From Anaerolineae bacterium (GTDB lineage Bacteria > Chloroflexota > Anaerolineae > B4-G1 > SLSP01), in assembly GCA_034437735.1 (NCBI GenBank), contig DAOTTS010000102.1, forward strand, positions 16,333-80,332: DNA of 64,000 bases. Direction: 5' to 3'. The translations under genes and the position numbers were made by a program. This document shows positions 5,601 through 47,930 of the stretch, piece by piece (position 1 is the first letter of the stretch; every line of letters starts with the position of its first letter). The notes under the pieces were generated by a model, which saw nothing but the letters and a program-made list of their open reading frames with translations, ran no database searches and was not told where the DNA came from.

Positions 5601-7260
5601 CCTCACCCGCCTGAAGCTCGGAGAGCCAGTCAGGCGCGCCCTCCTCCGGCAGCGGGAATCCCTCCGCCGCTTCCTCGTCGCCACCCGCCGGCTCAAGCTC
5701 ACCCAGCCAATCGGGCACGTCCTCAGCCGGCGCTAACGCCTCCTCATCCGTCGCCTCCTCAGCGGACGGCTCTAACTCGCTTAACCAATCCGGCATCTCG
5801 TCAGCCTCGACCGGAGCCTCAGCCTCAACCTCTAGGTCAGGTTGGGCCTCGGTCACTTCGGCCTCAGCGGTTTCTGCCTGCCCCATCTCGGAGCCGGCGA
5901 CGAGTTCCTGCAACCAATCGGGAGCCTCGTCCCCGACCTCGACCTCACCGGCCGCGACGGTCTCCTCGGCAATCCCCAGGTCGCTCAGCCAATCCGCCGC
6001 CTCCTCCAAATCCACGTCCTCCGGCAGCGATTGGTCTGTTTCCTCGGTCAACCCTTGAAGCCACCCGAAAGCCTCACCCTCTGTCTCCGGCATCGCAGCC
6101 TCTGACATAGGCTCCGCAGGCTCCTCCACTGCCGGCGTCGTCTCAGGTACTTCAGCCTCCCATTCCTCAGCAGGCGCAAACTCAACCGCCTCCGGCGACA
6201 CCTCTTCAACGTCCTCAACGGCCTCAACCTCGAGCTCTTCCTCTTCTTCGTCCGTGACGAGATCGGACATCCAATCCAGGTCCCCACCCGCCTCTTCCTC
6301 AAGCTCCGGCACACCGATATCCCGAAGCCAGTCGGGGATTTCAATCTGAGACTCAAGGCCGGCAGTGATGTCCACCAGACGCACCTCAGACTCGGTCATC
6401 TCTGGGGGAGCCTCAGAGATGCCAACCGTAACCGATGCGGCTTCCAACCGCTGGAACCAGCGGGTCTCCCTGTCGACTTCCATCGCATCGGGCTCATAGG
6501 TCAGCCTTTCAAGCGTCACCGGATTGGCCTCAACCGGGGAATCCGCGCCGAACAGCGCGCTGGCAATGTGCCCTTCCGGATCAACGTCCTGAGCACTTTC
6601 GAGGAAAACCCGTCCTTCGCTCTGACCGCTCTCCATCCACAACGACCCTAACAAGAGATTGGCCTTACAATTGTGGGGCATCGTATCGAGGATATTCTGA
6701 CAGACCTCCGAAGCCTGCACGTACTGTTCATCGCGCCAATAGGCCTCAGCCAACGCGGTCAGCAGGTCGGGTCTCGACGGCTCCACCTCCAGCAGAGCCC
6801 GCAGCTCCTCCGCGGCCCGTCCGTAACGATTCCCCCGAATGTACAGGTGAGCCAATCCGGCCTGGGTCTGAGGGATAAAATCAGGCTCCACGCCGTCCCG
6901 ACGCCCCACCATCCGGCGAATCTCATCCGCAATATCCTCATTGCCGGGATCGATCTCAAGCGCACGCTCCAGGTTCCAGATCGCAGCATCAAGATCGTCG
7001 CGCCGCTCGTGGGCCAATCCCAGGCCGATACGAGAGACTAGGTGCTCCGGGTTTGCACTCAACGCCCGCCGGAACATGTCAATGGCCAACTCAGGGAGGT
7101 CGGCGTCCAGCATCGTCTTGCCCAGCAGGTAGTAAGCCTCAAAATAGCGGGGATACTGCTTCAAGATGTGCCGGAGATGAGCCAACGCCTCAAGATACCG
7201 GGACTCATCAATGAGTTGATCAATTTCGTTCTGATATTCCTGTAGCGTGATTTCAGACAC
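2608..7260 (-). CDS. 1550-aa protein: N-terminal TPRs, long Glu/Ala/Pro-rich acidic region with repeated Trp motifs, C-terminal TPR
   Basis: GTG start with AAGGAGG RBS. TPR-like helices at both ends (AYYLLGKTMLDA...ALSANP; LGDAYMKEGNLDRALEFYNRA); about 20 PDWL/ALxWL motifs in between. Confidence 0.85.
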   Translation of the reverse strand: MSEITLQEYQNEIDQLIDESRYLEALAHLRHILKQYPRYFEAYYLLGKTMLDADLPELAIDMFRRALSANPEHLVSRIGLGLAHERRDDLDAAIWNLERALEIDPGNEDIADEIRRMVGRRDGVEPDFIPQTQAGLAHLYIRGNRYGRAAEELRALLEVEPSRPDLLTALAEAYWRDEQYVQASEVCQNILDTMPHNCKANLLLGSLWMESGQSEGRVFLESAQDVDPEGHIASALFGADSPVEANPVTLERLTYEPDAMEVDRETRWFQRLEAASVTVGISEAPPEMTESEVRLVDITAGLESQIEIPDWLRDIGVPELEEEAGGDLDWMSDLVTDEEEEELEVEAVEDVEEVSPEAVEFAPAEEWEAEVPETTPAVEEPAEPMSEAAMPETEGEAFGWLQGLTEETDQSLPEDVDLEEAADWLSDLGIAEETVAAGEVEVGDEAPDWLQELVAGSEMGQAETAEAEVTEAQPDLEVEAEAPVEADEMPDWLSELEPSAEEATDEEALAPAEDVPDWLGELEPAGGDEEAAEGFPLPEEGAPDWLSELQAGEAEVAEEVPKEAEVEELVEGEAGEAEVPDWLSALEPEATEGEAAEAVSAEGDVEVAGEVPDWLRDFKPETLEEAAEAEAEEEAAAPLEAAEAESLGFDVAETEVPETEMTLPDEQMGQPSEGAAPDLAEAEAGGGILGGDEALSWLESLTVGKEEELRAQAEAEAEARTAEILGRKPKREPEPEEPEVAEQVEEVTEAVQEVAPAEQEIETGAEVAAEPASAEAEEPSMPEMEGDMLSGDDALAWLESFTVGKEEELRAQAEAESEARMAELLGRKKEEAEAPEPEPTPEEEVPEDEAVAGMAAEPETPEVAAEAETLIAESPEAEVPEPAEEVPDWLDQLQPTGAEEEPAEAVAFEEETDTDWLSQFGDVSADEAAEVEAPETMLSEAETYEPDAAEMEALLEGEGVEEEDVLGWLAGVEAEEMPLETEAEAELESETAEEVAADVPDWLEAFRSGPLADLDEAATLIEEPADTSETEVVEVPEEPVAEAVDEEDALSWLEGLAAAEAEEEALPQPEPEVEAAPAPELEPEAEMLSGDDALAWLESLTVGKEDELRAQAEVEAEARTAEILGRKREAVEEVEAPSAEAEPETASVEPVQVEEEPPSGEDALGWLESLAAEAEEVGAEEPTAEELAQEEITTEELATEEIATEELATEEIATEAEPESVVEPMAPADEDVGEVRTEAPAEPEPSEDALSWLDALSPEETEDIESEIEAQAAARMDDFETTADREMPDVEEIAPEQPPAPERLEAEPFGWTAFASQAVPGEGEVAEEAEVAFGFTHFDDVEDMPEPEAEALEVEQQAEAALQAEVEAELPPEDIPVGAQPVTEIEALPEAEDEIVEPPVEPPVEVGAESVGAESVGAESVGAESAEPEMPIAEPEVSEEPRPAAQVSEVTGEELDEMRAYTESHEDDEGARLALARALWQADEVDEAMKHYEELVESRDKMDEVLTDMERYYEARPQSGSLLRTLGDAYMKEGNLDRALEFYNRAMDLL
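2987..3046. repeat. 4 x 15-bp in-frame tandem repeat encoding VGAES
   Basis: GATTCTGCCCCAACT three times plus one copy with a single mismatch. Confidence 0.95.
3616..3710. repeat. About 3 x 30-bp in-frame tandem repeat encoding EEIATEELAT
   Basis: (C/T)TCCGTCGCTATCTCCTCTGTCGCTAGCTC with period 30; third copy diverged. Confidence 0.9.
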
Positions 7261-16598: not shown

Positions 16599-16877
16599 TT
16601 ACGATTGGGCAATCAGAACGTTTCGAGCGGTAAGGTCCTCGGCAAAGTTCAAGACATCGGTCTGCACACGGGAAAGATCCGCCTCAAATCGATCGGCGAT
16701 CTCAGTGGCAATTTCAGCAAGGGTGCGTCTCCCATCAGCCAACTGCACCATCTGAGCCCCGGTCGCATTCAAAACCACAAACTTTCCCTTTTCCGGAAGG
16801 ACAACGACCAACTCACCCTCCGTCTCGCGCGTCACAATTTTATCGCTGGTCACTACGACATCATTCAAACTCAGCAT
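16599..16877 (-). CDS. Stand-alone PqqD-family (RiPP recognition element) protein
   Basis: RETEGELVVV...FVVLNATGAQMVQLADGRRTLAEIATEIADRFEADLSRVQTDVLNFAEDL fits the PqqD pattern. ATG 16877 overlaps the end of the upstream kinase gene. Confidence 0.85.
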   Translation of the reverse strand: MLSLNDVVVTSDKIVTRETEGELVVVLPEKGKFVVLNATGAQMVQLADGRRTLAEIATEIADRFEADLSRVQTDVLNFAEDLTARNVLIAQS

Positions 16878-17682
16878 CCATCGCCTCCCAAAAACTTGCA
16901 TCCTTACGGAATTGAAGCGCATACGCGGGTACGTCGCGCAACACACTTTCCCAACGCGCCATCAACAGTGGAAGCCACTCAGGATCCCCGGATACCACCG
17001 GGGAATTAGCAACCAGTTCAGCCAACGCACGTCCTGGAGGCAACCGGTCGACCGACACCTCGGGAGACTTCACCAGACGCAGCAAAGCTGACAGGGGGGC
17101 GTGCCTTACGTCGCCGCGGCGCTTCCCAAATGGCGTTGCGGCCATCACCCAGCCGGTATCCTCGGGGCGCACCACAACCAAATCGTCATTCAAGACAGGA
17201 TCCGGCGCCGACAATCGCGATGCCGTCGTCTTGCCGCTACCCGAGGTGCCGAAAAACGCGTACCCACGACCGCGATGCAGGACCGCAGCTGTGTGAAAGA
17301 TCAACGCATCTCGCGCAAACGCCTGACAGGTCAGGGCAACTCGCATAAAATATCCCACATCCGCCGCTCTGGCGTCAGGATGAAGGCGTAACTCCGCATA
17401 CCCTTCCTCTGTCGACACATACCCCTCAAAGCCGGGACGATCGAGAACGCACGCACCGGCTCGACATTGGGGGATCGCTTCAAAGAGTGGCCCCTCAGGT
17501 GGGGAGAGATGAGAGGCCGCGCGGATATGCACGGGCCAACAGACCGTATCCGGAGAGGGCTCCCATGAAGCCCAACTGCGCGCGATAATGTCCAACCAAA
17601 CCGGGGGGCAGATTACCCGCACGCCCAACCCGGCCATGCCGAAATCAAACGTCGAATTCAACGCCTCAGGAATGTCTGCCAT
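16861..17682 (-). CDS. HPr-kinase-related P-loop protein (HprK-rel / ScmC-like)
   Basis: HTAAV...AFFGTSGSGKTT (Walker A), LNDDLVVV, ATPFG: the HprK-like C-terminal kinase signature. Confidence 0.8.
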   Translation of the reverse strand: MADIPEALNSTFDFGMAGLGVRVICPPVWLDIIARSWASWEPSPDTVCWPVHIRAASHLSPPEGPLFEAIPQCRAGACVLDRPGFEGYVSTEEGYAELRLHPDARAADVGYFMRVALTCQAFARDALIFHTAAVLHRGRGYAFFGTSGSGKTTASRLSAPDPVLNDDLVVVRPEDTGWVMAATPFGKRRGDVRHAPLSALLRLVKSPEVSVDRLPPGRALAELVANSPVVSGDPEWLPLLMARWESVLRDVPAYALQFRKDASFWEAMDAEFE

Positions 17683-18131
17683 ATAATAAACAGCGCGACA
17701 GCGATGAGCAGCCCCCCCTCAACCCTGACCCAAAGGCGAGGCAGCCCCGCCCGCACCTCTACCGTCTCGGGATAAAGGGTCGTTGTACCATCCAGTTCAA
17801 CCTCTTCGATGCGATAACGGTAGCGCACGCCGGGCCTCACATCTGAGTCCTCAAAGCGGTAGCTCGCTCCCACCATCTCATCCCCCTGCGCCGGTATCAG
17901 GGCCTCGTTAACCTGGGTGAAGTCTTCCTCACCGACAGGCGAACGATAGACGTTGAAGCCGGCTGCACCGACTTCGCTGGCCGTCTCCCACGTAAGCACC
18001 ACAGGCGCCAAATCGGAAACTAACAGCCAAACGCCTCCGAACGCCAACAACGCTGCAAGGGCAGCCCAAAATATCCGACGAGGGGCCCCCCGTTGTGTTG
18101 AAGGCTCACGCTGCATATCTGGTGTCGTCAA
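17658..18131 (-). CDS. Small membrane protein with an FN3-like beta-sandwich between two hydrophobic segments
   Basis: N-terminal TM; LTWETASEVGAAGFNVYRS...YRFED...YRYRIEEV; C-terminal TM plus RR. TTG start inferred from the GGAGGA spacing. Confidence 0.65.
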   Translation of the reverse strand: MTTPDMQREPSTQRGAPRRIFWAALAALLAFGGVWLLVSDLAPVVLTWETASEVGAAGFNVYRSPVGEEDFTQVNEALIPAQGDEMVGASYRFEDSDVRPGVRYRYRIEEVELDGTTTLYPETVEVRAGLPRLWVRVEGGLLIAVALFIIWQTFLRR

Positions 18132-18199
18132 GGACCTATCCTCCAGGTGCGAAAGCACGGTGCAATTCGTCTACTCACCCCATTATACCCAACCCAGCA

Positions 18200-19180
18200 C
18201 TAATCCGTACTGATGTCCTTCGCCCACTGGCGATTGTTTTCGTACCATCGCACCAATGCCGCAATCCCTTCGCGATATGAGGTCTGAGGACGCCAACCTA
18301 ATAAGCGCTCCGCTTTTGAAATATCCGCCCACGTCGCATACACGTCGGCCGGGTGGCTGGGCTCATAGACGAGGTTCGCCTCCCGTCCCAGCAGCGACTC
18401 AATCTCTCGGATCGTGTCCATCAATACGACCGGGGTATCCGACCCGAGGTTGATAACCTCATAGCCAAGCGGCTTCAACCCGGCGATTGTGCCCCGCGCG
18501 ATATCGTCGACAAACGTAAAATCCCGCTTCTGGGTGCCATCCCCATAGATCGTCACCGGGCGACCCTCAGCAATCCACTGCGTGAAACGGAAAAGGCTCA
18601 TATCCGGACGCCCGGCCGGACCGTAAACTGTGAAATAACGGAAGACGGTGACGTCCAGGTCGTAAAGATAATGATACGTATAGCACATCGCCTCAGCAGC
18701 CTTCTTCGAGGCCGCATAGGGCGAGAGCGGTCGAGACGTATCCTGATCCTCCCGGTACGGCATAGGGTTATCCTTGCCATAGAGACTGGAGGTCGATGCC
18801 AACACAAACTTCTCAACTCCGTGGTTGCGGCACAGATCCAATAAATTGAGCGTCCCTTTGGCGTTCGTCTCGAGGTAGATCCAGGGATCCTTGACCGAAC
18901 GACGCACACCCGCCCACGCAGCCAAATTGATCACCCCATCAAACGGAGGCTCCGGGGCATGAAAGAGCGCACGAAGTTCGCCCAAGTCCGTGATATCAAG
19001 CGCGTGGAAGGTAAACAACGGATGATCCTGAATCTGCTTCAGCCGCCATTCCTTTAACCGAACATCGTACGCTTCATTGAGATTGTCGACCCCGATCACT
19101 GTGTGACCCTCGGCCAAAAGAAATTCCGCGACCTTAGAGGCGATAAAGCCAGCCGTCCCGGTCACCAAATACGTCCCCAT
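18200..19180 (-). CDS. NAD-dependent epimerase, UDP-glucuronate 4-epimerase-like
   Basis: TGTAGFI, NLAAWAGVR, ASTSSLYG, YAASK, RYFTVYGPAGRPDM. Confidence 0.85.
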   Translation of the reverse strand: MGTYLVTGTAGFIASKVAEFLLAEGHTVIGVDNLNEAYDVRLKEWRLKQIQDHPLFTFHALDITDLGELRALFHAPEPPFDGVINLAAWAGVRRSVKDPWIYLETNAKGTLNLLDLCRNHGVEKFVLASTSSLYGKDNPMPYREDQDTSRPLSPYAASKKAAEAMCYTYHYLYDLDVTVFRYFTVYGPAGRPDMSLFRFTQWIAEGRPVTIYGDGTQKRDFTFVDDIARGTIAGLKPLGYEVINLGSDTPVVLMDTIREIESLLGREANLVYEPSHPADVYATWADISKAERLLGWRPQTSYREGIAALVRWYENNRQWAKDISTD

Positions 19181-19256: not shown

Positions 19257-20258
19257 CTACCCAGCGCCATCACCCTCATCACGATAGTAGGCAATGACCT
19301 GTCGAAGCGTCTCCGGCAACGTGATCTCCGGCTGCCAGTTAAGCGTCCTCTGAATCTTACGCGTGTCCGGCACCCGCCGGTGCATATCCTCAAATCCCGG
19401 CTGGTACGCATCCTCATAGGGCACGAAGACGATGCGATCCTCAGGGTCGGACGCCGGCGCAACTTGAGCCAGAATCTCACGGGCCAAATCCAGGATCGTA
19501 ATCTCGTGAGTGCTCCCAACGTTGAAGATCTCCCCGACCGCGTCAGGACTCTCAATCAGCCCAACCAAGGCACGCACGACGTCTGAAACGTTGCAAAAGC
19601 AGCGGCTTTGGCTGCCATCCCCGTAAACCGTGATCGGCTCCCCACCCAGCGCCTGCTGCACAAATCGGGGGACGACCATCCCGTACTGCCCGGTCTGTCT
19701 CGGCCCGACCGTGTTGAAGAGCCGGCAGATAACGACCGGCAAATCCATCTGACGGTAATAGGCTAAGCCCAGGAACTCCTCCACGGCCTTAGAATCCGAG
19801 TAGCTCCAGCGGGCCTTCGTCGTCGCTCCCAAGACCCGATCATCATCTTCAGCGAAGGGAACCTGGGTTGATTTGCCATAAATCTCCGAGGTAGAAACGA
19901 GCAGCACCTTCTTCCGGTATCGCGCCGCCGTTCGAAGGACAGCCTGGGATCCCAAGACGTTGGTTTCGATCACACGAACGGGATCCCGCACAATGAGTTT
20001 CACGCCAACGGCTGCCGCCAGATGAAAAATCACGTCACACTCGCTGACGAGGCGGTCCATCACAATACCATTGCTGATCGTATCGATCACAAAATGAAAC
20101 CGAGGGTGCTCAACCAGATGCACGATATTGGCAAATCGCCCTGTCGAGAGGTCATCGATGATTGTGACCTCCCCCCCACGCTCCAACCACGCCTCTGCAA
20201 GATGAGAGCCGATGAATCCGGCTCCACCCGTGATCAACGCATGCTCACCAGCCGACAT
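19257..20258 (-). CDS. NAD-dependent nucleotide-sugar epimerase/dehydratase (SDR_e)
   Basis: TGGAGFIG, HLAAAVGV, STSEIYG, YSDSK, RLFNTVGPRQ. Confidence 0.88.
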   Translation of the reverse strand: MSAGEHALITGGAGFIGSHLAEAWLERGGEVTIIDDLSTGRFANIVHLVEHPRFHFVIDTISNGIVMDRLVSECDVIFHLAAAVGVKLIVRDPVRVIETNVLGSQAVLRTAARYRKKVLLVSTSEIYGKSTQVPFAEDDDRVLGATTKARWSYSDSKAVEEFLGLAYYRQMDLPVVICRLFNTVGPRQTGQYGMVVPRFVQQALGGEPITVYGDGSQSRCFCNVSDVVRALVGLIESPDAVGEIFNVGSTHEITILDLAREILAQVAPASDPEDRIVFVPYEDAYQPGFEDMHRRVPDTRKIQRTLNWQPEITLPETLRQVIAYYRDEGDGAG

Positions 20259-20294: not shown

Positions 20295-21509
20295 TCAAGG
20301 GTGCTGCCCATTCAGGAGTCTGGCCGGGCCATCCGAACGACAAAAGTGTACGCTGTACTGCCCCTCAATATCCGGATGCGCCTTAGGATAACGTTCAGCG
20401 ACAAAGGTCTTGATTTCGTCCCGGAACTCCGGGTGACTCAACCCGATACACGACCCTCGAAAGCCCCCACCACTGAAGCGTGCCCCGTAGACCCAGGGAC
20501 ATTCACTCAGAATCTCATACAACGTCGTCAGTTGCGGACATCCCGATTCATAATTATGCACCGAACTCGCACCAGACGCCCGCATCAACTCGCCGACGAC
20601 GTTGATCTTTCCCTCACGCCAGGCATTAACGCCCTGCCGAACCCGATCAATCTCGGTGAAAAAATGACGGGCGCGACGGTCCAGGGGAGCGGCAAGGCGG
20701 TCCTTGTAGACCTTATAGATCTCCGGATCGACCATCCGCAAACGGGGATCCTCAGGTATGGACTCCCCCGCCAGCGTCAGCAGCCGGCGCGCTGCCGCCT
20801 GACACTCCACCACACGGTTATTATAGTCCGTACCGGTGAGGCTCTGCGAGACGCCTGAGTAGACCACCAAGATCTCAAAAGGACTTTCAGACCGCGACGC
20901 AGGCACCTTTTCGACGTCCATGGTTTGGCAATCGAGATAGGTCAGACAGTTTTCTTCACTCAACAGGATCATCGACTGATCCAACACCCCATTACGAAGT
21001 CCAAGATAGACATTCTCAATGAAGCGATCCAACTCAATATTCTGTTCTGGGGGCAGGTCGAGATCGTTCGCGGCCTCCAGGGCGAGCAAATACGCGATCC
21101 CCACCGCAGCAGACGAACTCAATCCGCCGATAGGCATCGATCCCACAACAACGGCCGTGATCCCCTGAGACAGATCGTACGCCTCGGTCAGCGCCATCGC
21201 AGCCCCCCGGGCGTAGTTACCCCAATCCCTGGGGACCTTAGGCGGAATTTCATCGAGCTGAAAATCCACCCGGCCCGGAAAGTTTAGGCTCTCGACGACG
21301 ACGCGGCGATCCTCCCGAGGCACAAAAGCCAGAAAGATCGCGCGATCGAGGGTCATCCCGGTGACCAGACCATCCTGATGGTCCACGTGAGCGCCCAATG
21401 GGGAGATACGCAGAGGCGCCCGCACAACCCGAATATCGCCGTACGAACACCCTGCTAAACCACAAAGACGCGCCTTCAATCTATCAATCTGAGTCATAAG
21501 GTTCATCAT
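20295..21509 (-). CDS. GHMP sugar kinase resembling plant galacturonokinase (GalAK)
   Basis: APLRISPLGAHVDHQ in place of the GalK GRVNLIGEHxDY motif; GLSSSAAVG; NGVLDQ; YGARFSGGGFRG. Confidence 0.8.
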   Translation of the reverse strand: MMNLMTQIDRLKARLCGLAGCSYGDIRVVRAPLRISPLGAHVDHQDGLVTGMTLDRAIFLAFVPREDRRVVVESLNFPGRVDFQLDEIPPKVPRDWGNYARGAAMALTEAYDLSQGITAVVVGSMPIGGLSSSAAVGIAYLLALEAANDLDLPPEQNIELDRFIENVYLGLRNGVLDQSMILLSEENCLTYLDCQTMDVEKVPASRSESPFEILVVYSGVSQSLTGTDYNNRVVECQAAARRLLTLAGESIPEDPRLRMVDPEIYKVYKDRLAAPLDRRARHFFTEIDRVRQGVNAWREGKINVVGELMRASGASSVHNYESGCPQLTTLYEILSECPWVYGARFSGGGFRGSCIGLSHPEFRDEIKTFVAERYPKAHPDIEGQYSVHFCRSDGPARLLNGQHP

Positions 21510-21567: not shown

Positions 21568-22170
21568 TCAGCGACGTTGGCGATAGAGCGATGGATCCAC
21601 CACCGCGCCCATCGCTTGAAGATCCATAGGCCGATCCAAAAACGCTTGAATCTCATCCAGTTGCGCCTCAGGGGCGGAAAGCATCACATTGTAATCCACA
21701 TCGAGAAACCGGACATTGTCCTGTTTTCGCATCCACTCGTAGACCTGGGCAAGGTGCTTCTCAAAGAGTCGCGCCATTTCCCGGTCATCGGCCGTATCCG
21801 GATCCTCGCAGCGCCGCACCAGCATGCGGCGCTGCGAGGCCAGAATCTCATCCATCTTGCGACGCATCATAAAAACGCGGTACTCATAAGTGTCCGGAAG
21901 GTGCAGGAGCAGGGCGGCAATCACCTTCACAACCTTGCCCCGGGCATCCTCCAACCACGCCGTATCGCCCTCAGGCAACTTCTTGACCCGTTCAAATTCA
22001 TAGTAGCCCCTGGGGTTATCCGCGTTCGGTTCCCGGATGCCGTCGGTCACAACCTCAAGACCGCCGACATCCAGCATCCGCATCATCATCGAGGTCCCAG
22101 ATCTCGGCAAGCCCGAGACCGCAATCACAGGTTCCGATCGACCCCCAAACCATTTCTTGAAAAGACGCAC
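21568..22170 (-). CDS. PAPS-dependent sulfotransferase family protein
   Basis: VSGLPRSGTSMMMRML (5'-phosphosulfate-binding loop) and MRRKMDEILASQ; directly downstream of sat-cysC. Confidence 0.85.
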   Translation of the reverse strand: MRLFKKWFGGRSEPVIAVSGLPRSGTSMMMRMLDVGGLEVVTDGIREPNADNPRGYYEFERVKKLPEGDTAWLEDARGKVVKVIAALLLHLPDTYEYRVFMMRRKMDEILASQRRMLVRRCEDPDTADDREMARLFEKHLAQVYEWMRKQDNVRFLDVDYNVMLSAPEAQLDEIQAFLDRPMDLQAMGAVVDPSLYRQRR

Positions 22171-22179
22171 GTCCCCTCC

Positions 22180-23913
<1,734 letters not shown>

Positions 23914-23969: not shown

Positions 23970-25400
23970 TCAATCACCAACCGCCACTTCGGCGCCGTAA
24001 GCCAAGAGCGCTTCCACTTCTTTCTCGTTGTGACCTTCCGCATAGACACGCAACACGGGCTCCGTGCCCGAGAGGCGGATCAGCAACCACGCATCATCCG
24101 CCAGCAGATACTTGACCCCATCAATGACCTGAACCTCCACCACTGACTGCCCAGCAAGGTTCGCGGGGGCCATCTCCTGAAGCCGGGTCACCATTTGAGG
24201 TTTCGAGACCGGTCGACCCAGCGGCAGATCCTGCCGGGTGTAATGGGTGGGCCCATACGTCTCCTGAATGTCGCGGATCAAGACGTGGAGAGGTTCACCG
24301 GCATCAGCCATAATCTCCAACAAGAGGAGGCCCATCAGAATGCCATCCCCCTCGGGGATGTGGCCCCGGATCGATATCCCCCCGGACTCCTCCCCCCCGA
24401 TCAAAACATCCCCTTCCAATATGTGTTTGGCGATGTGGTTAAATCCGACCGGGGTCTCGTAGAGGGGTAAATCATAACGTTTGGCCAGGCGATCCACCAT
24501 CCGGGTTGTCGACACGGTCTTAATCACGGCACCCCGCGCGCCCCGAACCTCAACGAGATAACGCAAGACCAGCGTGAAGATATGATGGGGATCCACATAA
24601 TGTCCCTGGGCATCCATCGCCCCAATCCGGTCAGCATCACCGTCCAGGGCCAAGCCGATGTGCGCGTGATGCGCCTGAAGTGCTGCAACTAGTGCCTGTA
24701 AATTATGCTCCGCAGGCTCAGGATGGATACCGCCAAAGCCGGGGTTCATCTCCCCCCGGATCTCATAGAGCGAGCACCGCGTACGGCTTAGCAAGTCGCG
24801 AAAGGCCCCGCGACCCGACCCATACATCGCATCGGCGACGACCCGCAACTCCCCGGTCGACACAGCATCGAGGTCAACCAACGTCGAGAGGTGCTGATAG
24901 TAAGCCCAGGCGGGATCGAACCGGCGGATCAAACCGGCATCCGTCGCCTCGTCGAAAGCCATCAAGTTAGGCCCTCGTGAATCCCGCTGATTGCGGGTCA
25001 ACAACGCCTCAATCTGTTGGGCCTGCTCCGGAAGCACCGATCCCCCGAACGCAGCCTTAAGCTTCAAGCCATTGTACCGGGGGGGGTTGTGGCTCGCGGT
25101 GATCATTACCCCGGCATGCGCCTGTTTCTCGACAATGGCGTAGGAGACAGCAGGGGTAGGTGCATCAGCGCGGGTCAGATGCGCGACGACCCCGTTCCCC
25201 GCCATGACCCGCGCAACCTCCCTCGCATAACGATCGGAAAGAAAACGGGTATCGAACCCGACGACAACCTCCGGTTCTTCTCCATAACATAACTCACGCA
25301 CGTAATCGGCAACCGCCTGCGCGACCACCCGCAAGTTCTCGAAGGTAAACATATCACTGATGACGGCCCGCCATCCATCCGTTCCGAATCTGATCGTCAC
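23970..25400 (-). CDS. Phosphoglucomutase/phosphomannomutase family
   Basis: FGTDGWR, TASHNP (phospho-Ser), DGDADR, GGEESGG, RLSGTEP. Confidence 0.93.
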   Translation of the reverse strand: MTIRFGTDGWRAVISDMFTFENLRVVAQAVADYVRELCYGEEPEVVVGFDTRFLSDRYAREVARVMAGNGVVAHLTRADAPTPAVSYAIVEKQAHAGVMITASHNPPRYNGLKLKAAFGGSVLPEQAQQIEALLTRNQRDSRGPNLMAFDEATDAGLIRRFDPAWAYYQHLSTLVDLDAVSTGELRVVADAMYGSGRGAFRDLLSRTRCSLYEIRGEMNPGFGGIHPEPAEHNLQALVAALQAHHAHIGLALDGDADRIGAMDAQGHYVDPHHIFTLVLRYLVEVRGARGAVIKTVSTTRMVDRLAKRYDLPLYETPVGFNHIAKHILEGDVLIGGEESGGISIRGHIPEGDGILMGLLLLEIMADAGEPLHVLIRDIQETYGPTHYTRQDLPLGRPVSKPQMVTRLQEMAPANLAGQSVVEVQVIDGVKYLLADDAWLLIRLSGTEPVLRVYAEGHNEKEVEALLAYGAEVAVGD

Positions 25401-25517: not shown

Positions 25518-25545
25518 ATCATAAACCGTTCTGTCTAATTGTCAA
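25518..25545 (-). promoter_or_regulatory. Sigma70 promoter candidate for the PGM-sat operon
   Basis: Minus strand TTGACA (25545-25540), 16-nt spacer, TATGAT (25523-25518). Confidence 0.55.
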
Positions 25546-27315: not shown

Positions 27316-29286
27316 TCAACGCTCGATAATCCCCGCCTCCACAAGCGCATCGCTGATGCGCTCAGGTGCATCGACCTGCACCGCGATCCACGCCACACCG
27401 GGATAGTGGGTCTCAAAGAAGGCCGCCAGATCCCCATCCCACCGCGCGGGGTTGATCGCAATCACCCGCCGCACTTTAAGATCGCCGATACCGGCATCGT
27501 CCACACTCCCCCCAACCGTAAACCGGTATCGCTGCCACGTCGCCTTCACCACAGCCTCGGCCCAGGCAACATCCGCATCCGGGGGGAGGAGGACATACGT
27601 ACGCGCATAGGGCTCGCGCGGCAATCCAAAAGGCCACGTCAACTCACCCGCGCGGCTCTCGGGAAACGGGGTGACGTCCGCCAACCGTTCGCTCAACAAC
27701 TCAGGACGGTCGATCTCCAAGGGTATATAGAGAGTCCCGGGATAGTGGGTCTCGAAAAACGCCGAGAGGTCGCCCGACCAGCCCTGGGGGTTGACGGCAA
27801 TCACCCGACGGAAATCCAAGGCCCCAATGCCGGCATCATCCGCACTGCCACCTATCGTCAACCGATGGGCATCCCAACTACCGCGCACGGCTGCAACCGC
27901 CCAGTCGGTGTTCAATTCGGGGGATAACAGCACATAGGTCCGCGCATACGATTCTCGCGGGGAGCCTCGCGGGGGCGCCACCAGATACGGTCGCGGGTTG
28001 AGCCAATCGAAGATGGCACGCATATGCACACCCGACACCCGCATCCCTAAATGAAGGTGCGGCCCGGTACTAAACCCTGTCGAACCCGCCCATCCCAACA
28101 GATCCCCCCGGGAGACCAAGCCTCCCACTTCGACCTCAATATCCGAAAGGTGAGCGTAGAGCAAGGTGATCTCCTCACCATCCGGACCATAGCTACGCAC
28201 CCGGAGATGCCGTCCGTACCCATCGCGATCCATTGCGACCTGGCTGACCGTCCCCGGAAGCGCCGCAAAAATGGGGGAGGTCTCAGGGGCCTCGAGATCC
28301 ACCCGCAGGTCGACGCCGTTATGCCCCCCTGTCATCCGGCAGCAATTATAGTAAACGCGTTGATTCTCTCCGAACCGCTGAGTATAGCGCCGGCACTGCG
28401 TAGGCCAGAGCATCCACATCTGACGAGGGTGCGGCAATGTGGGACGTTTCGCGACCTTGTCCACCAACGGCTTGGGGCGACCCTCGGGATCGAGCCAAGC
28501 CAAGGGTGCGTAATGCGGATCGTTGGAACGTAAAATCAAACTACAGACCGCAGTGATGCGATCGTACTGGGCCATCAGCGAGAAAAACTCCGCATACTGC
28601 GCGCCCCGAGCCTCAGAGGAAACCTGAGGGCTCACGTTAGCAAATTCAGTAATCGCAAACGTCTGATCCTTAAAGGGCTCCAGATAGATGCGTAGGAACC
28701 GCATGACCTCTTCGAACCCCCGCATCTCCTCAACCGTCCGCCAATAGAGGTGAAGAGCAGCCCAATCCGCAGCCCGCAAGGCATCCTGACAATCCTCGAG
28801 GAAGATGGTCTCATCGATGGGGGCAGAGGGAACCGGGCGCGCGAGGGCCGAGGGAGCAAGCGCCGGAAAGCCAACGCTCACCGCTTCCCCAAAGCGCGCC
28901 CTCAGCAATCGCTGCACTTCTAGGAACCAGTCCGCAAACGCTTTCCCATCCTGCCAAGACGTCCCGGCGCCGCGATCAGTCCGATTCGGCTCATCGTGAA
29001 CCTCCAGGCGCCCAACGTCTTGATGTAGAAAAGCATGAATGTCTTCCAAAAAATAGTCCACAAATGACAAGGGATCGACGGCCTCAGTCGACGATTGGGG
29101 CATCAACAATTGGAGAATAAACGCCCGGGCGCCAGCACCTCGCCACTTCGGAACATCGTCGCTGGAATTTACCCGGGCGCGGAGACGCACAAGCTGCAAC
29201 TTCGCAAGGTTAAACGCAGCAAGATCGGACTCCCATGCCGGCCCAACCGGCGCTTGAACGCCGGCCTTTGCGTAGGGAGCGCTCAC
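27316..29286 (-). CDS. Multidomain M23 metallopeptidase with a duplicated C-terminal module
   Basis: GHNGVDL (HxxxD), YAHL, GPHLHLG (HxH); two copies of a PRE.YARTYVLL...W...R.T.GGS.DDAGIG.L..RRVIA.NP..W.GDL.AFFETHYPG module. GTG start overlaps the amidase stop. Confidence 0.82.
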   Translation of the reverse strand: MSAPYAKAGVQAPVGPAWESDLAAFNLAKLQLVRLRARVNSSDDVPKWRGAGARAFILQLLMPQSSTEAVDPLSFVDYFLEDIHAFLHQDVGRLEVHDEPNRTDRGAGTSWQDGKAFADWFLEVQRLLRARFGEAVSVGFPALAPSALARPVPSAPIDETIFLEDCQDALRAADWAALHLYWRTVEEMRGFEEVMRFLRIYLEPFKDQTFAITEFANVSPQVSSEARGAQYAEFFSLMAQYDRITAVCSLILRSNDPHYAPLAWLDPEGRPKPLVDKVAKRPTLPHPRQMWMLWPTQCRRYTQRFGENQRVYYNCCRMTGGHNGVDLRVDLEAPETSPIFAALPGTVSQVAMDRDGYGRHLRVRSYGPDGEEITLLYAHLSDIEVEVGGLVSRGDLLGWAGSTGFSTGPHLHLGMRVSGVHMRAIFDWLNPRPYLVAPPRGSPRESYARTYVLLSPELNTDWAVAAVRGSWDAHRLTIGGSADDAGIGALDFRRVIAVNPQGWSGDLSAFFETHYPGTLYIPLEIDRPELLSERLADVTPFPESRAGELTWPFGLPREPYARTYVLLPPDADVAWAEAVVKATWQRYRFTVGGSVDDAGIGDLKVRRVIAINPARWDGDLAAFFETHYPGVAWIAVQVDAPERISDALVEAGIIER

Positions 29287-31406: not shown

Positions 31407-34400
31407 TTATAGCTCCTTGAGTGCATCGTTTTCGTGAATCAACGCTTCAATATCAGCCGCTAATTGATCCGGCGCGTAAGGCTTGGTCACAACACGCACG
31501 ACATCCAAAGCCTCAAGATCCTCTCTCGCCACATTGGTCATATTGGCCCCGGTGACCAAGACGGGGATATCCGTTATGGAGGCGCTACGCTTCAATGACT
31601 TCAGCATCTGATAACTGTTACCCTCTGCACTGAGCGTCATATCATAAACCAGCATCGCGGGCCGGAACTTTTGCACCAGCGGTAACACACGCTCGGGATG
31701 GGTCGTCGTGCGCACCCCAAACCCCTTGGACTGCAAGACCGTGCGTATCTGATTGAGCACGTCCTTATCGCGATCGACAACGACAATGCCCTCGGACGTA
31801 TCCAGCGACTGCTTGATCACAGCGAGAAGCTTTTCTGCATCCAACGGCTTATTAAGATAAGCGACCGCACCCAGATCCAATCCATGCGCACGGTCCAAGA
31901 CGACGGAGACAATGGCGACCGGGATATCGGCCGTCTCCGGCTCGCGTTTGAGAAGCTGCATCACTTCGAATCCATCCAAATCCGGGAGCCGGATATCTAA
32001 CGAGATAAAGTCCGGCAAACTTTCGCGGGCCATCCGAATCGCTTCATCCCCGGATCGAGCAAGGACGACCTCATATCCCTCAGATTCCAGCGTCACCCGC
32101 AAGAACTCACCGACCTCGGCATCATCCTCGACGACAAGGATAAGCGGTGCGGAGTCCTCCACGAGCAGGGGGGGAGGCATCCCCACTTCCTGAGTTGGGG
32201 CACCCTCAGCCAATGGGACTGAGAAGGTAAAGATACTCCCCGTTCCCAATACACTTTCCAGCCAAATCTCCCCCCCGTGCATCTGAATAAGTGACAGGGT
32301 AATCGCCAGACCCAAACCGGTACCCGACACCTCGTAAACGGCCGGATCATCCTCAACCCGGTAGAACCGATCAAAGATCTTCTGCTGATTCTCCGGCGCG
32401 ATCCCAATCCCCGTATCTTTGACGGCCACGTGCATCATCTCGTCACGGACATAGACGTACAAAGCAATCGTCCCGTCGATCGGCGTATACTTATAGGCAT
32501 TACTCACAATATTGGTGATGATCTGATTCAGGCGAGCCGGGTCAGCGTGTACTTCCGGCAGATTATCAGGCGCCACAATCTCAACAGCCTGGCCTTTATC
32601 CGCGATCTTCGGCATCATCAAATCCACAACCTGCTGGACGATGTCCATAAGGACAACCGGTTCTTGCTGCAGCTCAATACGACCCTGCTCAATGCGCGAG
32701 ATATCGAGAAGATCATTCACCAATATCGTCAAACGATCGGCGTTATTCTTCACCTTCTTCAGGAAGCTCAACTGCATTTCAGATATCTCACCGACCGCAC
32801 CGTTGACCAGCAGATCGACGTAGCCCACAATCGAGGTCATAGGCGTGCGCAGCTCGTGCGATACGGTCGACACAAATTCACTCTTCACACGGTCGGCCTC
32901 GATCTCCGATGTGATATCGCGGAAGACCGAAACGACCCCTAAGAATTCGCCGCCCTGAGAGACCACGGGAGAGACGTGAACACCCACGTAGCGACGCCCC
33001 ACCTCCAGTCGATGGGAGATAAAAGCATCAGCATCCTCATCCCCAGGGTTCTCTTTCCACGTTTCGATCTGCGACGACCACTCGCGGGTCTCATTCCCAT
33101 ACAGACTCAGGATCTCCTCCTGATGACGATCCAAGGCTTGATTGCGGTCAATCGAAAGAATCCGTTCTGCGGCCGCATTGAACATGATGACCCGACCATC
33201 CGTATCGGACACCATCACGCCGTCCGCAATACCCTCCAGGATCGCCTGGTTCTTCGCGGCATCAATGCGCTGCGACCGCAGCATCTCACCCAAGCGCTCC
33301 GCCTGTTCGCGGATCATCCGATAGAGGTCGGCGTTATTGAGCGCGTTGCCCAACTGAATCGCAGCGGCCTCAACCAACTGCATGTGCATCTCGTCGAAGA
33401 CGGAGGACGCTTCAGACTGCAACAGGATGACGCCCATCCCCTCACCCGCATTGCCCAGGATCGGCACGACCATCGTCGCGTGCATCCGACCTAAGGCATC
33501 CACCCGACAACGATCATCCGTCTGAGCATCCGGGAGGATAATCGCTTCCTTATGCTCCAGCACCCACCCTACCAGACTATCCCGTCGGTTAAAGGGCGTC
33601 GGCTCACCGCCGGGTGAGATCGGCTCTGAGTGACCAATGACCGCCCGATAGACAAGTTGCCCCGTATCATTGTCGAGCAAAATCACCGAACCTCGGTCAG
33701 CACGCACGGCTTGCTGCAATAACATCAACGCCTGACTGAGCACCCGATCCATATCCAAACTGGCCACCAATTCAGAGGCAATTCGGTAGAGCACCTCAGA
33801 GCGGTCGCGCTGCAAGCGCAGATGCTCCAGGGCCTCACCCAACTCCTGGGTGCGTTCGGCCACCCGGGCCTCCAGCTCTTCACTGAACCGCTTCACCTCA
33901 TCAAAGAGCCGCGCATTGTCCACAGCCACCGACACTTGATCCGCCAAAGCGGTGAGCGTGGCGACCTCCGCCGGGGTAAAATCCCCCTGGGCTCGGCGGT
34001 CGGCGGTCAAAATACCCACCGGACGCCTCTCAACGACCAAAGGCACCAGAATCGAAGAGCCGATCGGGACCCGACCCTCAATAAAACTCCCCTCTTCCCT
34101 GACGTCTTCAATGACCACCGGCATACCGGTATTGGCAACCTGTTGGATAGCGCCGCTATCCCTGCTGAGGTCCAAATCCTCCAATAAGTTCAGGGCATAT
34201 CCTGATGAAGCCAGCGGCACAAAATGATCCACCTCATCCTCACTGAGGAAAATCGTTGAATAGTCATATTCAAGGAGGTTAGTCACCGACTGGACAACCG
34301 TATTCAGCACCAGCGAGAGATCTAACTTCGTCGTGATCGAACGGTTGAGCTCGTTAAAGAGGCTGAGTGTGTTCACCTGCCGGCGCAGGTCCTCAACCAG

Positions 34401-36464
34401 GCGGTTATTCTCGATGGCCAACGCGACCTGAGAGGCAAAGAGCTCAACAATTTCTGCCACGCCAGCATCAGGGGCCAGGCCATCCCTCGGTCGATCGACG
34501 GACATCAACCCGAGTACCTGTCCCGTATTTCCGCGCAGGGGCACAAAGAAGAGATCCTCAGGATGCCACAGCTCCTCACCGATCGCCTCAGGGGACGCCC
34601 CAGAGGGAAAGACGTCCAATCCCTCACGGACATCCTTATGCTCTGCCGGAATATAATAGCACCGGCCAATCTGAAATTGTTCCTGACAGAGCTTTTCCAC
34701 ACGGGTCCAAGGGATCCGCACGTCCTTGCGTTCCTCGAATTCCTTCAAGGGAATACCGGCTACAGCGACGCGCTGTAACGCATCACCAGCCAACACACTG
34801 ATGAGGACAACCTCGAACCCGGAGCCCTCCTGGATGACATAAGCCGCGTCCAGCAGGATATCGCTCAGGGGGCGATCGGAGCGCATAATGCGCCCCATCT
34901 CCAAAAGCCTGGACATCTGCTCGATCCGCCGCCGCATCTGCTCGCCGCGATGCAACTGATCCTGATATCGCTGGGCGTTCCCCAACGCGATGGCGATATG
35001 CAGCGCCAGCCCCTCCAGGAGCGACTGCAGGGCAGGCGCAAACGTCTTTTCCCGAGGTGACTGCAGCAAAATCGCAGCCGACAAACGCTGCTCAAAAAAT
35101 ACCGGCGTGATCAGAAGACTACCCGATCCGGGCAGCGTCGTTTCAAACCGCTCACGATCCGCCATCGATCGAAGATCAATCATCTCTCGGGCAGCAAGCT
35201 CAGCCACCACATCCGTATTGGAAGTCCACGATTCAATCACCCTTCGCACCGACGCCAACGCCTCGTCACCATAGCCTTGATGAACTCGAACCCGGTTCCC
35301 CTCCTCGAAAAAGGTGAGGATACTGCCGGCCTCGGCGTCCCCAAACTGAACTGCTTCGCTTAACGCAAGGTCAAGGATCTGATCCAAAGCCACCGTCGAC
35401 GCAATCTCACGGGTCACCCGCTGAATCGACTCCATCGCATCCAACCGGCGACGAAGCTCGACATCGGCCTCGGTATAGCGCTGAGCGTTCTCAACCGCAA
35501 CGGCGACCTGATCGCCAAATAGCTGGGCCAAGTCTCGATCACGCTCACCGAACCGTCCCACTTGATCCGAGGCGATCTCCAACGTACCGATCAACTGATC
35601 CCGGACCTCTAAGGGTACGCCCAGATACGAGTGCGCCCAATGCCGCAGGGCATCACTCTTGGGTGCAACGCGCTCATACCCCGAGATATCATTAACCAAA
35701 AGCGGTGCGCGATTTTGAGCCAACCAGCCGGAGAGGCCTTCCTCCCGGTTATAGGTCGCTTCGAGACTCTCGCCCGCCTTATCTGCGGTTTCGGTCGAGC
35801 GGTAGGCACGACGGACCAAAAGGTCAAGATCCGAATCATAGAGCGTGATCTCCCCAGCATCATAGGGAATCAGCACGTAGACGGCATCCAGGACCTTTTG
35901 CAGGACTGTCTGAAGTTCGAGGGTCTCCCCAACGAGACGGGCCATCTGCTGCACCGTCCGCAGTTCATCAACCTGACGCGCCCGAATGGCATTCGCCCGT
36001 CGATATCGTGCAATGCCGGCGGCAGCAACCCGCCCGATCTCACAGAGCGCCATTCCTAAAGCTTGAGAGTCCGCATCAAACGCAGCATCGGCCCGCCCCA
36101 ACACCAGCCACCCGTTCTGTGCATACTCAGAGACAGGAAAAGCCAGAATCTCTCCCCACACCCCATCGGGGGAGGAAAGACTCAACGGTTGAAACTCGTC
36201 ACCCTGTGTCAAGCGGTCGACCGCCCACTGAGGCACGCCGGCTTCAGCGTTGGCAGGCAGCGAAGCCAGGACCTCTCCCGTATCCGCGGATACCCACGCC
36301 CCGACCTCCGCGCCCAACAAGCTGAACGCAGACGATAACGTCAGGGACCAGACTTCGTCCTCGTCCGACGCATCACTCAACCGCTGACCGACCTGGGTCA
36401 GGGCATCAAGGTCAGGCACATAGACGCCTTCTTCTAGCATTGTCTGATCATCCAACGCATTCAT
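31407..36464 (-). CDS. 1685-aa cytoplasmic hybrid histidine kinase: about 5-6 GAF, PAS, HisKA, HATPase, REC, REC-like
   Basis: Repeated GAF tails (S.L.VPL...IG.L...F...L..LA.Q.A.A.ENA); SHELRTP; NIVSNAYKY, DTGIGI, GTGLGL; two receiver-like C-terminal domains; no TM segment seen. Confidence 0.92.
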   Translation of the reverse strand: MNALDDQTMLEEGVYVPDLDALTQVGQRLSDASDEDEVWSLTLSSAFSLLGAEVGAWVSADTGEVLASLPANAEAGVPQWAVDRLTQGDEFQPLSLSSPDGVWGEILAFPVSEYAQNGWLVLGRADAAFDADSQALGMALCEIGRVAAAGIARYRRANAIRARQVDELRTVQQMARLVGETLELQTVLQKVLDAVYVLIPYDAGEITLYDSDLDLLVRRAYRSTETADKAGESLEATYNREEGLSGWLAQNRAPLLVNDISGYERVAPKSDALRHWAHSYLGVPLEVRDQLIGTLEIASDQVGRFGERDRDLAQLFGDQVAVAVENAQRYTEADVELRRRLDAMESIQRVTREIASTVALDQILDLALSEAVQFGDAEAGSILTFFEEGNRVRVHQGYGDEALASVRRVIESWTSNTDVVAELAAREMIDLRSMADRERFETTLPGSGSLLITPVFFEQRLSAAILLQSPREKTFAPALQSLLEGLALHIAIALGNAQRYQDQLHRGEQMRRRIEQMSRLLEMGRIMRSDRPLSDILLDAAYVIQEGSGFEVVLISVLAGDALQRVAVAGIPLKEFEERKDVRIPWTRVEKLCQEQFQIGRCYYIPAEHKDVREGLDVFPSGASPEAIGEELWHPEDLFFVPLRGNTGQVLGLMSVDRPRDGLAPDAGVAEIVELFASQVALAIENNRLVEDLRRQVNTLSLFNELNRSITTKLDLSLVLNTVVQSVTNLLEYDYSTIFLSEDEVDHFVPLASSGYALNLLEDLDLSRDSGAIQQVANTGMPVVIEDVREEGSFIEGRVPIGSSILVPLVVERRPVGILTADRRAQGDFTPAEVATLTALADQVSVAVDNARLFDEVKRFSEELEARVAERTQELGEALEHLRLQRDRSEVLYRIASELVASLDMDRVLSQALMLLQQAVRADRGSVILLDNDTGQLVYRAVIGHSEPISPGGEPTPFNRRDSLVGWVLEHKEAIILPDAQTDDRCRVDALGRMHATMVVPILGNAGEGMGVILLQSEASSVFDEMHMQLVEAAAIQLGNALNNADLYRMIREQAERLGEMLRSQRIDAAKNQAILEGIADGVMVSDTDGRVIMFNAAAERILSIDRNQALDRHQEEILSLYGNETREWSSQIETWKENPGDEDADAFISHRLEVGRRYVGVHVSPVVSQGGEFLGVVSVFRDITSEIEADRVKSEFVSTVSHELRTPMTSIVGYVDLLVNGAVGEISEMQLSFLKKVKNNADRLTILVNDLLDISRIEQGRIELQQEPVVLMDIVQQVVDLMMPKIADKGQAVEIVAPDNLPEVHADPARLNQIITNIVSNAYKYTPIDGTIALYVYVRDEMMHVAVKDTGIGIAPENQQKIFDRFYRVEDDPAVYEVSGTGLGLAITLSLIQMHGGEIWLESVLGTGSIFTFSVPLAEGAPTQEVGMPPPLLVEDSAPLILVVEDDAEVGEFLRVTLESEGYEVVLARSGDEAIRMARESLPDFISLDIRLPDLDGFEVMQLLKREPETADIPVAIVSVVLDRAHGLDLGAVAYLNKPLDAEKLLAVIKQSLDTSEGIVVVDRDKDVLNQIRTVLQSKGFGVRTTTHPERVLPLVQKFRPAMLVYDMTLSAEGNSYQMLKSLKRSASITDIPVLVTGANMTNVAREDLEALDVVRVVTKPYAPDQLAADIEALIHENDALKEL

Positions 36465-44828: not shown

Positions 44829-45312
44829 TCCACTAACATACCCCACTCGATCTCCGAGCTAAAGAAGTCCGTTATGCTGTCTGGAAAATTCTGGTTAGCA
44901 ATGTTAGTGTTTAAGAAAGGCAATTCCACCCCCGAATCACCCCGAGAATATATGAAACCGCTAGGAAATCAAACCGGCGTAAGTCTATTATAACTCTATT
45001 TCTGTAAATGTTAGTTAAACGTTAGACACCCTGATGGATCCCCAGTAGCGCTGACTTGACAGCAATGGTATACTAAGATTAGGTTTAATTACTCTAACTT
45101 TAACACAAATTTACGTAAAGATAAGGTATATAATGTAGGGAGTGATCATTGACTAGGATCACGTGAGTCGAACTGAAAAGAGAAAGGCGCCCATGAACCC
45201 CTAAACCGACCGATTTTTGAAACTTTCAGCCTCAAATACCGAGATTGATAGCTTTTGGGAGAGTCTCTGTGCTATGATTGAGAAGTCTGCAAGCCAAAAA
45301 GGAGTTGCCAGC

Positions 45313-46599: not shown

Positions 46600-46677
46600 G
46601 CCCATGTCTCGACAATCCTTGCGACCTTTCGATCTGGTTCTTTTGACACCTGCAACGGCTGCGATAAGGAGGCCCGT

Positions 46678-47736: not shown

Positions 47737-47753
47737 GGTCTGTTAGCTACGCC

Positions 47754-47772
47754 GCCCCCGAGACGGGGGCTG
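47754..47772. repeat. Short intergenic palindrome, second copy of 30141-30159
   Basis: GCCCCCGAGACGGGGGCTG. Confidence 0.7.
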
Positions 47773-47930
47773 GGAGCGCCAGCAGTTCCCTGTTCTATCG
47801 GGGCTTTGAAGCATAGGGGGCCTTGTAAAAACCATCCGCGAGGACGGGGAGCGTTTTTTTAGAGGACTAAGACGGGATGAGGACACGACGATCATACGCG
47901 CGCCAACACGAGTGGAGGAGAGCCTAAGGT

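Follow-up and report, generated by a model that had tools for sequence, protein, structure and literature searches.

Bacteria are known to catabolize D-galacturonic acid (GalA) via isomerase or oxidative pathways and to form UDP-GalA de novo through UDP-glucose dehydrogenase (UGDH) and a 4-epimerase. Two-gene sugar salvage modules, in which an anomeric kinase goes together with a nucleotidylyltransferase, also exist in bacteria (e.g., AmgK-MurU and HddA-HddC). To our knowledge, a kinase forming GalA-1-phosphate has so far been characterized only in Arabidopsis. This plant galacturonokinase (GalAK) is At3g10700 (EC 2.7.1.44; Yang et al. 2009, J Biol Chem 284:21526, cited in PMC2823444 and PMC8636097); PMC2823444 states that it shares almost no identity with glucuronokinase (GlcAK), which lies on an unrelated GHMP branch. 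We describe here a gene found in a stretch of 64,000 nucleotides from an Anaerolineae bacterium (contig DAOTTS010000102.1; the whole stretch is called the window below). From sequence comparisons, it probably encodes a galactokinase (GalK)-fold, ATP-dependent anomeric sugar kinase of the GalAK clade, with a predicted GalA-1-kinase activity.

Clade membership, predicted fold and distribution of the kinase

The gene under study is the following.

20295..21509, minus strand: GalAK-like GHMP sugar-1-kinase gene (ATG start, 404 aa)

An identical public protein (P0001) has 403 aa and begins at the second Met. When the kinase was searched with phmmer against a library of 1.84 billion representatives, 904 matches were obtained at E <= 1e-30, and the galacturonokinase of Camellia sinensis (P0133; UniRef V9QNR1) scored 329 bits, with 49% identity and E = 4.5e-93. 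In BLASTP comparisons, the same plant protein reached 311 bits (44% identity), as against 152 bits (29% identity) for E. coli GalK. The best relatives with a solved structure, which are galactokinases, scored at most 137 bits. All five NCBIfam galactokinase equivalogs matched the protein, each far under its curated cut-off: the scores were 179.9 for TIGR00131 (cut-off 226.65) and 182.3 for PRK05322 (cut-off 385), and were lower for the other three. The pattern R-x-x-P-L-G-A-H-x-D-H was present in 103 of the 150 best representatives (50% cluster level), plant proteins among them, and the classical galactokinases with R-V-N-L-I-G-E-H-T-D-Y showed up in this set only under about 193 bits.

Further evidence was obtained with a neighbor-joining tree (104 sequences, with E. 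coli GalK as the root), in which the GAHxDH sequences formed a single clade that was split from the GEHxDY galactokinases in 200 of 200 bootstraps. Twelve alignment columns discriminated the two groups (P37, A40, H44, Q45, L176, L189, V233, W297, S316, G323, F345 and P379 in the window kinase), and the window kinase, like the plant protein, had the GalAK-clade residue at all 12. Neither a score above an equivalog cut-off, nor the GEHxDY(N) signature, nor a Leloir gene context marks it as a GalK, and the N-terminal LGNPSD motif of GlcAK is absent from its sequence. Because of its similarity to plant GalAK, its scores under the GalK cut-offs, the bootstrap split and the 12 discriminating columns, assignment of the window kinase to the plant-GalAK clade rather than to ordinary GalK is supported.

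This had been anticipated by an earlier sequence-only reading of the locus, which listed the sugar-binding motif PLGAHVDHQ and five further motif strings and held that the latter track Arabidopsis GalAK. All six are literally present in the open reading frame (ORF): PLGAHVDHQ at residue 37, SSSAAVGIAYLLALEAANDL at 131, ELDRFIENVYLGLRNGVLDQSMILLS at 159, YNNRVVECQAAARRLL at 229, NYESGCPQLTTLYEIL at 319 and GARFSGGGFRGSC at 342. The six patterns recur nearly unaltered in the named galacturonokinases of Camellia sinensis and Wolffia australiana (P0286), and none was found when they were searched in E. coli GalK. The BLAST and tree comparison that this reading had called for came out on the plant side.

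Residues 39-45 of the window kinase read GAHVDHQ, and the signature does not vary at these positions among 42 diverse members of the clade. A40, H44 and Q45 stand where GalK has Glu, Tyr and Asn, respectively. The catalytic core is common to the GalK and GalAK clades and comprises R34, D43, D177 and, in the GLSSSAA loop, G129, S132, S133 and A134. An AlphaFold2 (AF2) model built from an alignment of the 42 clade members had a predicted local distance difference test (pLDDT) score of 95.5 and could be superposed on human, Lactococcus and archaeal GalK with template modeling (TM) scores of 0.86-0.92 at about 27% identity. No solved structure of a GAHxDH-clade member was found among the PDB matches. 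R172 (in LGLRNG) was considered as a universal carboxylate ligand and rejected, as clade members may have K, R, N or Q there.

The three Pfam domains detected in the protein (PF00288, PF10509 and PF08544) are those of GHMP kinases (N- and C-terminal) together with the galactokinase sugar-binding signature. This finding, the galactokinase identity of all its best solved homologues and the names carried by its relatives (in NCBI, 'galactokinase family protein' or 'GHMP kinase'; in many JGI records, 'galactokinase', and in some of them, 'galacturonokinase') would suit an ordinary galactokinase of the Leloir pathway with a divergent signature. We consider this scarcely probable, in view of the missed GalK cut-offs, the bootstrap split, the replacement of the signature Glu and Tyr, and the genomic context, where neither galT nor galM was found in any of 85 loci (the window and 84 related ones). 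GalE-type matches at these loci reflected generic similarity among short-chain dehydrogenases/reductases (SDRs), save for one true GalE in L070.

The closest relatives of the kinase (60-87% identity) come from Anaerolineae metagenome bins. When one genome per GTDB species was scanned, at least 495 genomes, belonging to more than 10 phyla, proved to contain a relative; the matches listed include Chloroflexota, KSB1, Calditrichota, Spirochaetota, Planctomycetota, Verrucomicrobiota, Latescibacterota, Bacteroidota, Gemmatimonadota and Sumerlaeota, as well as the Bacillota genera Gracilibacillus, Amphibacillus, Evansella and Proteiniclasticum. The eukaryotic members that could be named all belong to Viridiplantae (Camellia, Tetracentron, Wolffia, Closterium, Mesotaenium, Spirogloea and Micromonas). 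In a first tree, the Viridiplantae sequences fell in one region of the GAHxDH clade, where deep branching was poorly supported. Monophyly of Viridiplantae was not supported: it was recovered in 0 of 200 bootstraps for the six named sequences, because metagenomic sequences interleave with them. Judging from these sequences, the GalAK-like family is predominantly bacterial, and the trees give no direction of transfer; the suggestion, made at the outset, that the gene bears on the origin of the plant enzyme thus receives no answer from them.

Gene neighborhoods in the family and in the window

Neighboring genes were surveyed by tblastn over the 84 related loci, independently of gene calling, and 76 of these had enough downstream sequence for an adjacent transferase to be scored. 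A nucleotidylyltransferase gene was found directly downstream of the kinase gene, on the same strand and often overlapping with it, in 46 of the 76 loci, which represent 10 phylum-level groups. The kinase gene of KSB1 and Zipacnadales bins runs 4 bp into the start of the PF00483 NTP_transferase gene. The kinase-linked transferase is akin to RmlA and GalU and scores under every curated equivalog cut-off, including those of MurU and HddC. A salvage module consisting of the kinase and a pyrophosphorylase is suggested across the family.

Among the 84 loci, 12 (belonging to five groups) had a UGDH, GAE-like (at least 35% identity to the SDR of the window described below) or UXS-like gene; the 67 loci with a stand-alone transferase (3-kb flanks), taken as an approximate control, had no such gene. 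The kinase-transferase pair lies beside UGDH and a homologue of UDP-glucuronic acid (UDP-GlcA) 4-epimerase in Bacillota, in Spirochaetota, in a Haloplasma relative and on a Lactococcus exopolysaccharide plasmid. In Gracilibacillus suaedae, the genes for a GAE-like SDR, the kinase, the transferase and UGDH form a compact same-strand cassette, and the best solved relatives of this SDR are 5u4q and the UDP-GlcA 4-epimerase of Bacillus cereus. The same four-gene cassette is found in a Wzy-type exopolysaccharide cluster on the Lactococcus garvieae plasmid CP066001.1 (L169). The Evansella locus additionally has a Wzx-type flippase, and both the L. garvieae and the Evansella cassettes sit among flippase, glycosyltransferase and chain-length genes. 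The frame of the L. garvieae kinase gene (28100-29276 of the record) is broken near codon 80. In the annotation of this plasmid, the frameshifted kinase appears as two 'hypothetical proteins', the PLSDB gene table has no entry for the transferase, which lies in an 800-bp gap after the kinase, and 'GDP-mannose 4,6-dehydratase' is the name given to the GAE-like SDR.

Other contexts were also encountered. In three Chloroflexota loci, distant relatives of uxaC (uronate isomerase) or uxaA (altronate dehydratase) adjoin the kinase, at about 7867 in L028 (directly upstream of the kinase), at 2173 and 13781 in L026 and at 10461 in L039. Several relatives from the subclade of the window kinase have a GDP-fucose-synthase-like SDR near the kinase. 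The partner of the kinase in Planctomycetota and Verrucomicrobiota is, in place of the transferase, a conserved protein of about 390 aa. This protein (L060:9215-10387, with homologues in L050, L057, L059, L075, L077, L079, L081 and L088) had no Pfam or NCBIfam match, and its N-terminus resembles a Rossmann GxGxxG motif.

In the window, the kinase gene belongs to a string of co-directional genes, which are listed here in the order in which they are read, with the candidate promoter first.

25518..25545, minus strand: sigma-70-like promoter candidate (TTGACA-16-TATGAT, 11/12; a consensus match only)
23970..25400, minus strand: phosphoglucomutase/phosphomannomutase-family gene, first of the string
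22180..23907, minus strand: bifunctional ATP sulfurylase / adenosine 5'-phosphosulfate kinase, i.e., 3'-phosphoadenosine 5'-phosphosulfate (PAPS) synthase, upstream of the sulfotransferase
21568..22170, minus strand: sulfotransferase (Pfam Sulfotransfer_3), 58 bp upstream of the kinase
19257..20258, minus strand: UXS-like SDR, closest to UDP-glucuronate decarboxylase / UDP-xylose synthase (194 bits with human UXS1, 140 bits with the C-terminal domain of ArnA)
18200..19180, minus strand: GAE-like SDR, closest to UDP-glucuronate 4-epimerases (274 bits with 5u4q, 194 with Bacillus cereus UGAepi 6zl6, 160 with MoeE5)
17658..18158, minus strand: small predicted membrane protein (no Pfam match)

The kinase gene thus comes between the sulfotransferase and the UXS-like gene. 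The intergenic gaps in the string amount to 9-76 bp, those between the kinase and the UXS-like gene and between the two SDR genes being 36 and 76 bp, respectively. Of the promoter-like sites in this region, the one upstream of the phosphoglucomutase gene matches best, and no strong terminator-like site was seen within the string in a scan for consensus sequences only. The UDP-GlcA-4-epimerase-like neighbor mentioned in the sequence-only reading is the GAE-like SDR, and the identification holds, as its best solved relatives are 5u4q, BcUGAepi (6zl6 and 6zla) and MoeE5.

In the relatives L010-L012 and L016, a homologue of the small-membrane-protein gene comes directly after the kinase gene, so that the pair of SDR genes seems to be an insertion confined to the lineage of the window and its 85%-identical relative L009. 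In a separate Anaerolineae lineage (L018), a UXS-like and a UGDH gene have been placed independently after the kinase gene. The independent recruitment of UXS and GAE/UGDH genes on these two occasions argues for a functional link with the kinase and not for an inherited gene order. As to the genes on the other side, a sulfotransferase is next to the kinase also in the relatives L001, L010, L011 and L014, and a PAPS synthase is found near the kinase in 8 of the 11 loci of the window's subclade, although the intervening genes vary. The presence of these two genes upstream of the kinase may be a sign of a sulfated glycan.

The window also contains two overlapping ORFs (16599-17682, minus strand) without a Pfam match, which lie between the glycan genes and Sua5/TsaC, one of 273 aa with a P-loop-like GTSGSGKTT motif and the other of 115 aa. 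Further away are mevalonate-pathway genes (45217-49088, plus strand), encoding HMG-CoA reductase, an HMG-CoA-synthase/KAS-III-like protein and thiolase, and two very long ORFs of 1550 and 1685 aa (2608-7260 and 31407-36464, both on the minus strand); the relative L002 has a multi-GAF-domain sensor at the position corresponding to the latter ORFs. A GH51-type alpha-L-arabinofuranosidase with an Alpha-L-AF_C domain is encoded at 58604-60106 (minus strand), a hint that plant hemicellulose or the side chains of pectin may be utilized.

A catabolic role of the kinase would also agree with the presence, directly downstream of its gene, of a UXS-like decarboxylase and a GAE-like epimerase. Environmental GalA would then be converted to GalA-1-phosphate and to a nucleoside diphosphate (NDP)-sugar, which would be epimerized and decarboxylated to UDP-xylose as a carbon route. 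The uxaC/uxaA-like genes in a few loci go in the same direction, and so does the arabinofuranosidase, inasmuch as it suggests plant-polymer use. We hold this role to be very improbable, because no path from UDP-xylose into central metabolism is evident, the passage through an NDP-sugar is energetically costly for catabolism, and the clear wider contexts (the L. garvieae plasmid and Evansella) are made up of flippase, glycosyltransferase and chain-length genes.

The nucleotidylyltransferase partner and the choice of substrate

The transferase has a distinct arrangement in the lineage of the window. In none of the 11 loci of its subclade (kinase at least 65% identical) does a transferase gene adjoin the kinase gene. 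A Chloroflexota-type transferase (317 aa, with an NTP_transferase and a short hexapeptide domain) is the neighbor of the kinase in 16-17 Chloroflexota loci that are less closely related and is encoded at an unlinked site in 9 of 10 metagenome-assembled genomes of the subclade, including that of the closest relative. Pairing of the kinase with this unlinked transferase is plausible in the window's lineage.

In 26 of 80 loci with the Chloroflexota-type transferase (L089-L168), the latter is preceded by a different GHMP kinase of about 376 aa (e.g., L163:1846-3000, P0292), whose gene ends exactly at the start codon of the transferase. Its motif INLLGNPADG resembles the peptide VGFLGNPSDVYFGR of lily glucuronokinase, which is given in PMC2823444, and two of its members are called 'glucuronokinase' by JGI. 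It was not accepted as a GlcAK orthologue, the LGNP[S/A]D motif and the two JGI names being the only indications, with no curated family. Another protein of the window was also considered as a partner.

38549-39808, minus strand: protein with a C-terminal left-handed beta-helix (417-419 aa)

This protein is highly conserved in Anaerolineae (63-95% identity). Its N-terminal half is modeled as nucleotidylyltransferase-like, with the two-domain protein ST0452 as the best match (Foldseek E of about 1e-7). The candidate was rejected, since the pLDDT was 63 and the TM score 0.36, and the LAAGxGxRL (GxGxR) motif is lacking. The name 'multidrug transporter' that NCBI gives to its relatives is almost certainly wrong.

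The salvage route put forward in the sequence-only reading is suggested for the family, where the transferase is adjacent in 46 of 76 loci and UGDH or GAE genes are often at hand, and has less behind it in the window itself. Its expectation of a broad plant-type UDP-sugar pyrophosphorylase (USP) as partner has to be dropped, as the family's transferase is of the RmlA/GalU type.

Several observations weigh against GalA as the substrate and against the module in this lineage. The Camellia and Wolffia proteins used as plant references carry their names by homology to Arabidopsis GalAK only, and an identity of 44-49% with them leaves substrate specificity unfixed. UDP-uronate genes occur in only about 14% of the loci. 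A tblastn search of the 64-kb window with four kinase-linked transferases revealed no homologue and thus no pyrophosphorylase. The Chloroflexota-type transferase is stand-alone in 67 of its 80 loci, so that a dedicated pairing is unproven, and the unlinked copy may have a general function instead. The linkage with PAPS synthase and sulfotransferase is limited to one subclade with a broadly conserved gene order, and may reflect inheritance of this order instead of a functional relationship. Finally, the Glu of the GalK signature presumably contacts the C6-hydroxyl of galactose, an assumption for which we found no literature source.

Some of these points would be accounted for if the kinase, while belonging to the GalAK clade, acted on another sugar (D-glucuronic acid, L-arabinose, a galactose derivative or a sulfated sugar) and served another NDP-sugar pathway. 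A few substitutions can shift the specificity of GHMP sugar kinases, the UDP-uronate genes are infrequent, and the conserved neighbors in the subclade are PAPS synthase, sulfotransferase and, in several relatives, a GDP-fucose-synthase-like SDR, and not uronate enzymes; in Planctomycetota and Verrucomicrobiota, moreover, the partner is the 390-aa protein and not a transferase. We find this explanation unlikely, though deserving of serious attention. The pocket signature R-x-x-P-L-G-A-H-x-D-H-Q is invariant from plants to the window kinase, and the informative neighbors, where there are any, encode UDP-GlcA/UDP-GalA enzymes or resemble uronate isomerase/dehydratase genes. As far as D-glucuronic acid is concerned, the plant kinase for this sugar is placed on an unrelated GHMP branch in PMC2823444.

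Proposed pathway and comparison with known systems

We infer that GalA is the substrate because of the orthology with plant GalAK, the uronate context and the loss of the acidic signature residue. The most likely reaction would be D-galacturonic acid + ATP -> alpha-D-GalA-1-phosphate + ADP. The Arg34/Asp177 pair would act at the anomeric hydroxyl, Asp43 would bind sugar hydroxyls and GLSSSAA would form the phosphate loop, while the loss of the acidic Glu and the gain of His and Gln beside it could allow the C6 carboxylate to bind. The sugar-1-phosphate would then be activated by the RmlA/GalU-type nucleotidylyltransferase, which is not homologous to plant USP and whose gene would be provided by the kinase operon in most lineages and by another site of the genome in this Anaerolineae subclade. 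Through the adjacent 4-epimerase-like and decarboxylase-like SDRs, NDP-GalA could enter a pool of UDP-GalA, UDP-GlcA and UDP-xylose supplying a surface glycan, and this glycan might, speculatively, be sulfated, in view of the PAPS synthase and sulfotransferase genes that run in the same direction.

A more comprehensive reading, which we put forward tentatively and would not expect to hold in all its parts, is that of a dedicated bacterial NDP-uronic-acid salvage module present in more than 10 phyla. It would consist of two genes, for a GalAK-type kinase and its private RmlA-like nucleotidylyltransferase, and in Chloroflexota the same transferase would alternatively pair with a GlcAK-like kinase. 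Green-plant GalAK would be a branch of the essentially bacterial family and, as such, a candidate case of ancient transfer into the ancestor of Viridiplantae. In the window's lineage, the module would have been rewired toward sulfated glycans, feeding a sulfated uronic-acid glycan from its place next to PAPS synthase and sulfotransferase.

The novelty implied in the sequence-only reading is partly upheld: no paper on a bacterial GalAK was found in the literature searched, and annotation based on KEGG Orthology already labels some relatives 'galacturonokinase' in JGI records. The kinase-transferase cassette is possibly a new pathway variant. If confirmed, a bacterial GalAK with its own nucleotidylyltransferase would represent a salvage entry to bacterial UDP-uronate metabolism, and the 'galactokinase' labels on many records of the family would need correcting. 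There would also be a practical use, as GalA-1-phosphate is reportedly no longer sold and the plant kinase is reported to be too unstable and too weakly active for the preparative synthesis of UDP-GalA (PMC7984243). Orthologues from the cultured genera Gracilibacillus and Amphibacillus or from thermophilic Chloroflexota could serve as replacements for it. The family further offers comparative material on how a GalK pocket becomes carboxylate-accepting and on the origin of the plant enzyme.

Among the known systems, plant GalAK is close to the window kinase in its GHMP/GalK fold, its sequence (44-49% identity), the GAHxDHQ signature, the 12 clade residues, the catalytic Arg/Asp pair and the phosphate loop. 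The window protein differs from it in being bacterial, about 20-30 residues shorter and devoid of the plant insertion after residue ~90, and, unlike the plant gene, its gene sits in an operon-like string. The usual partner in the bacterial family is an RmlA/GalU-type nucleotidylyltransferase, whereas plants use USP ('Sloppy'), a member of the UDPGP family. With GalK (TIGR00131; 1pie, 1wuu and 2cz9), it shares the fold (TM 0.86-0.92), the catalytic core and about 27-29% identity, and differs by its scores under the cut-offs, by the changes of Glu to Ala, Tyr to His and Asn to Gln, and by a context without galT and galM. The plant/animal GlcAK (At3g01640; PMC2823444) is analogous as a uronic acid 1-kinase that feeds a pyrophosphorylase in salvage; it belongs to the unrelated GHMP branch and has the LGNPSD motif that the window kinase lacks. 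AmgK-MurU and HddA-HddC resemble the bacterial family in that the kinase gene is translationally coupled to a small NTP_transferase gene, and differ in the kinase family and the presumed substrate, with the family's transferase scoring under the MurU and HddC cut-offs. In the light of these comparisons, the window kinase is a credible bacterial version of the plant salvage enzyme, with a function predicted from its sequence.

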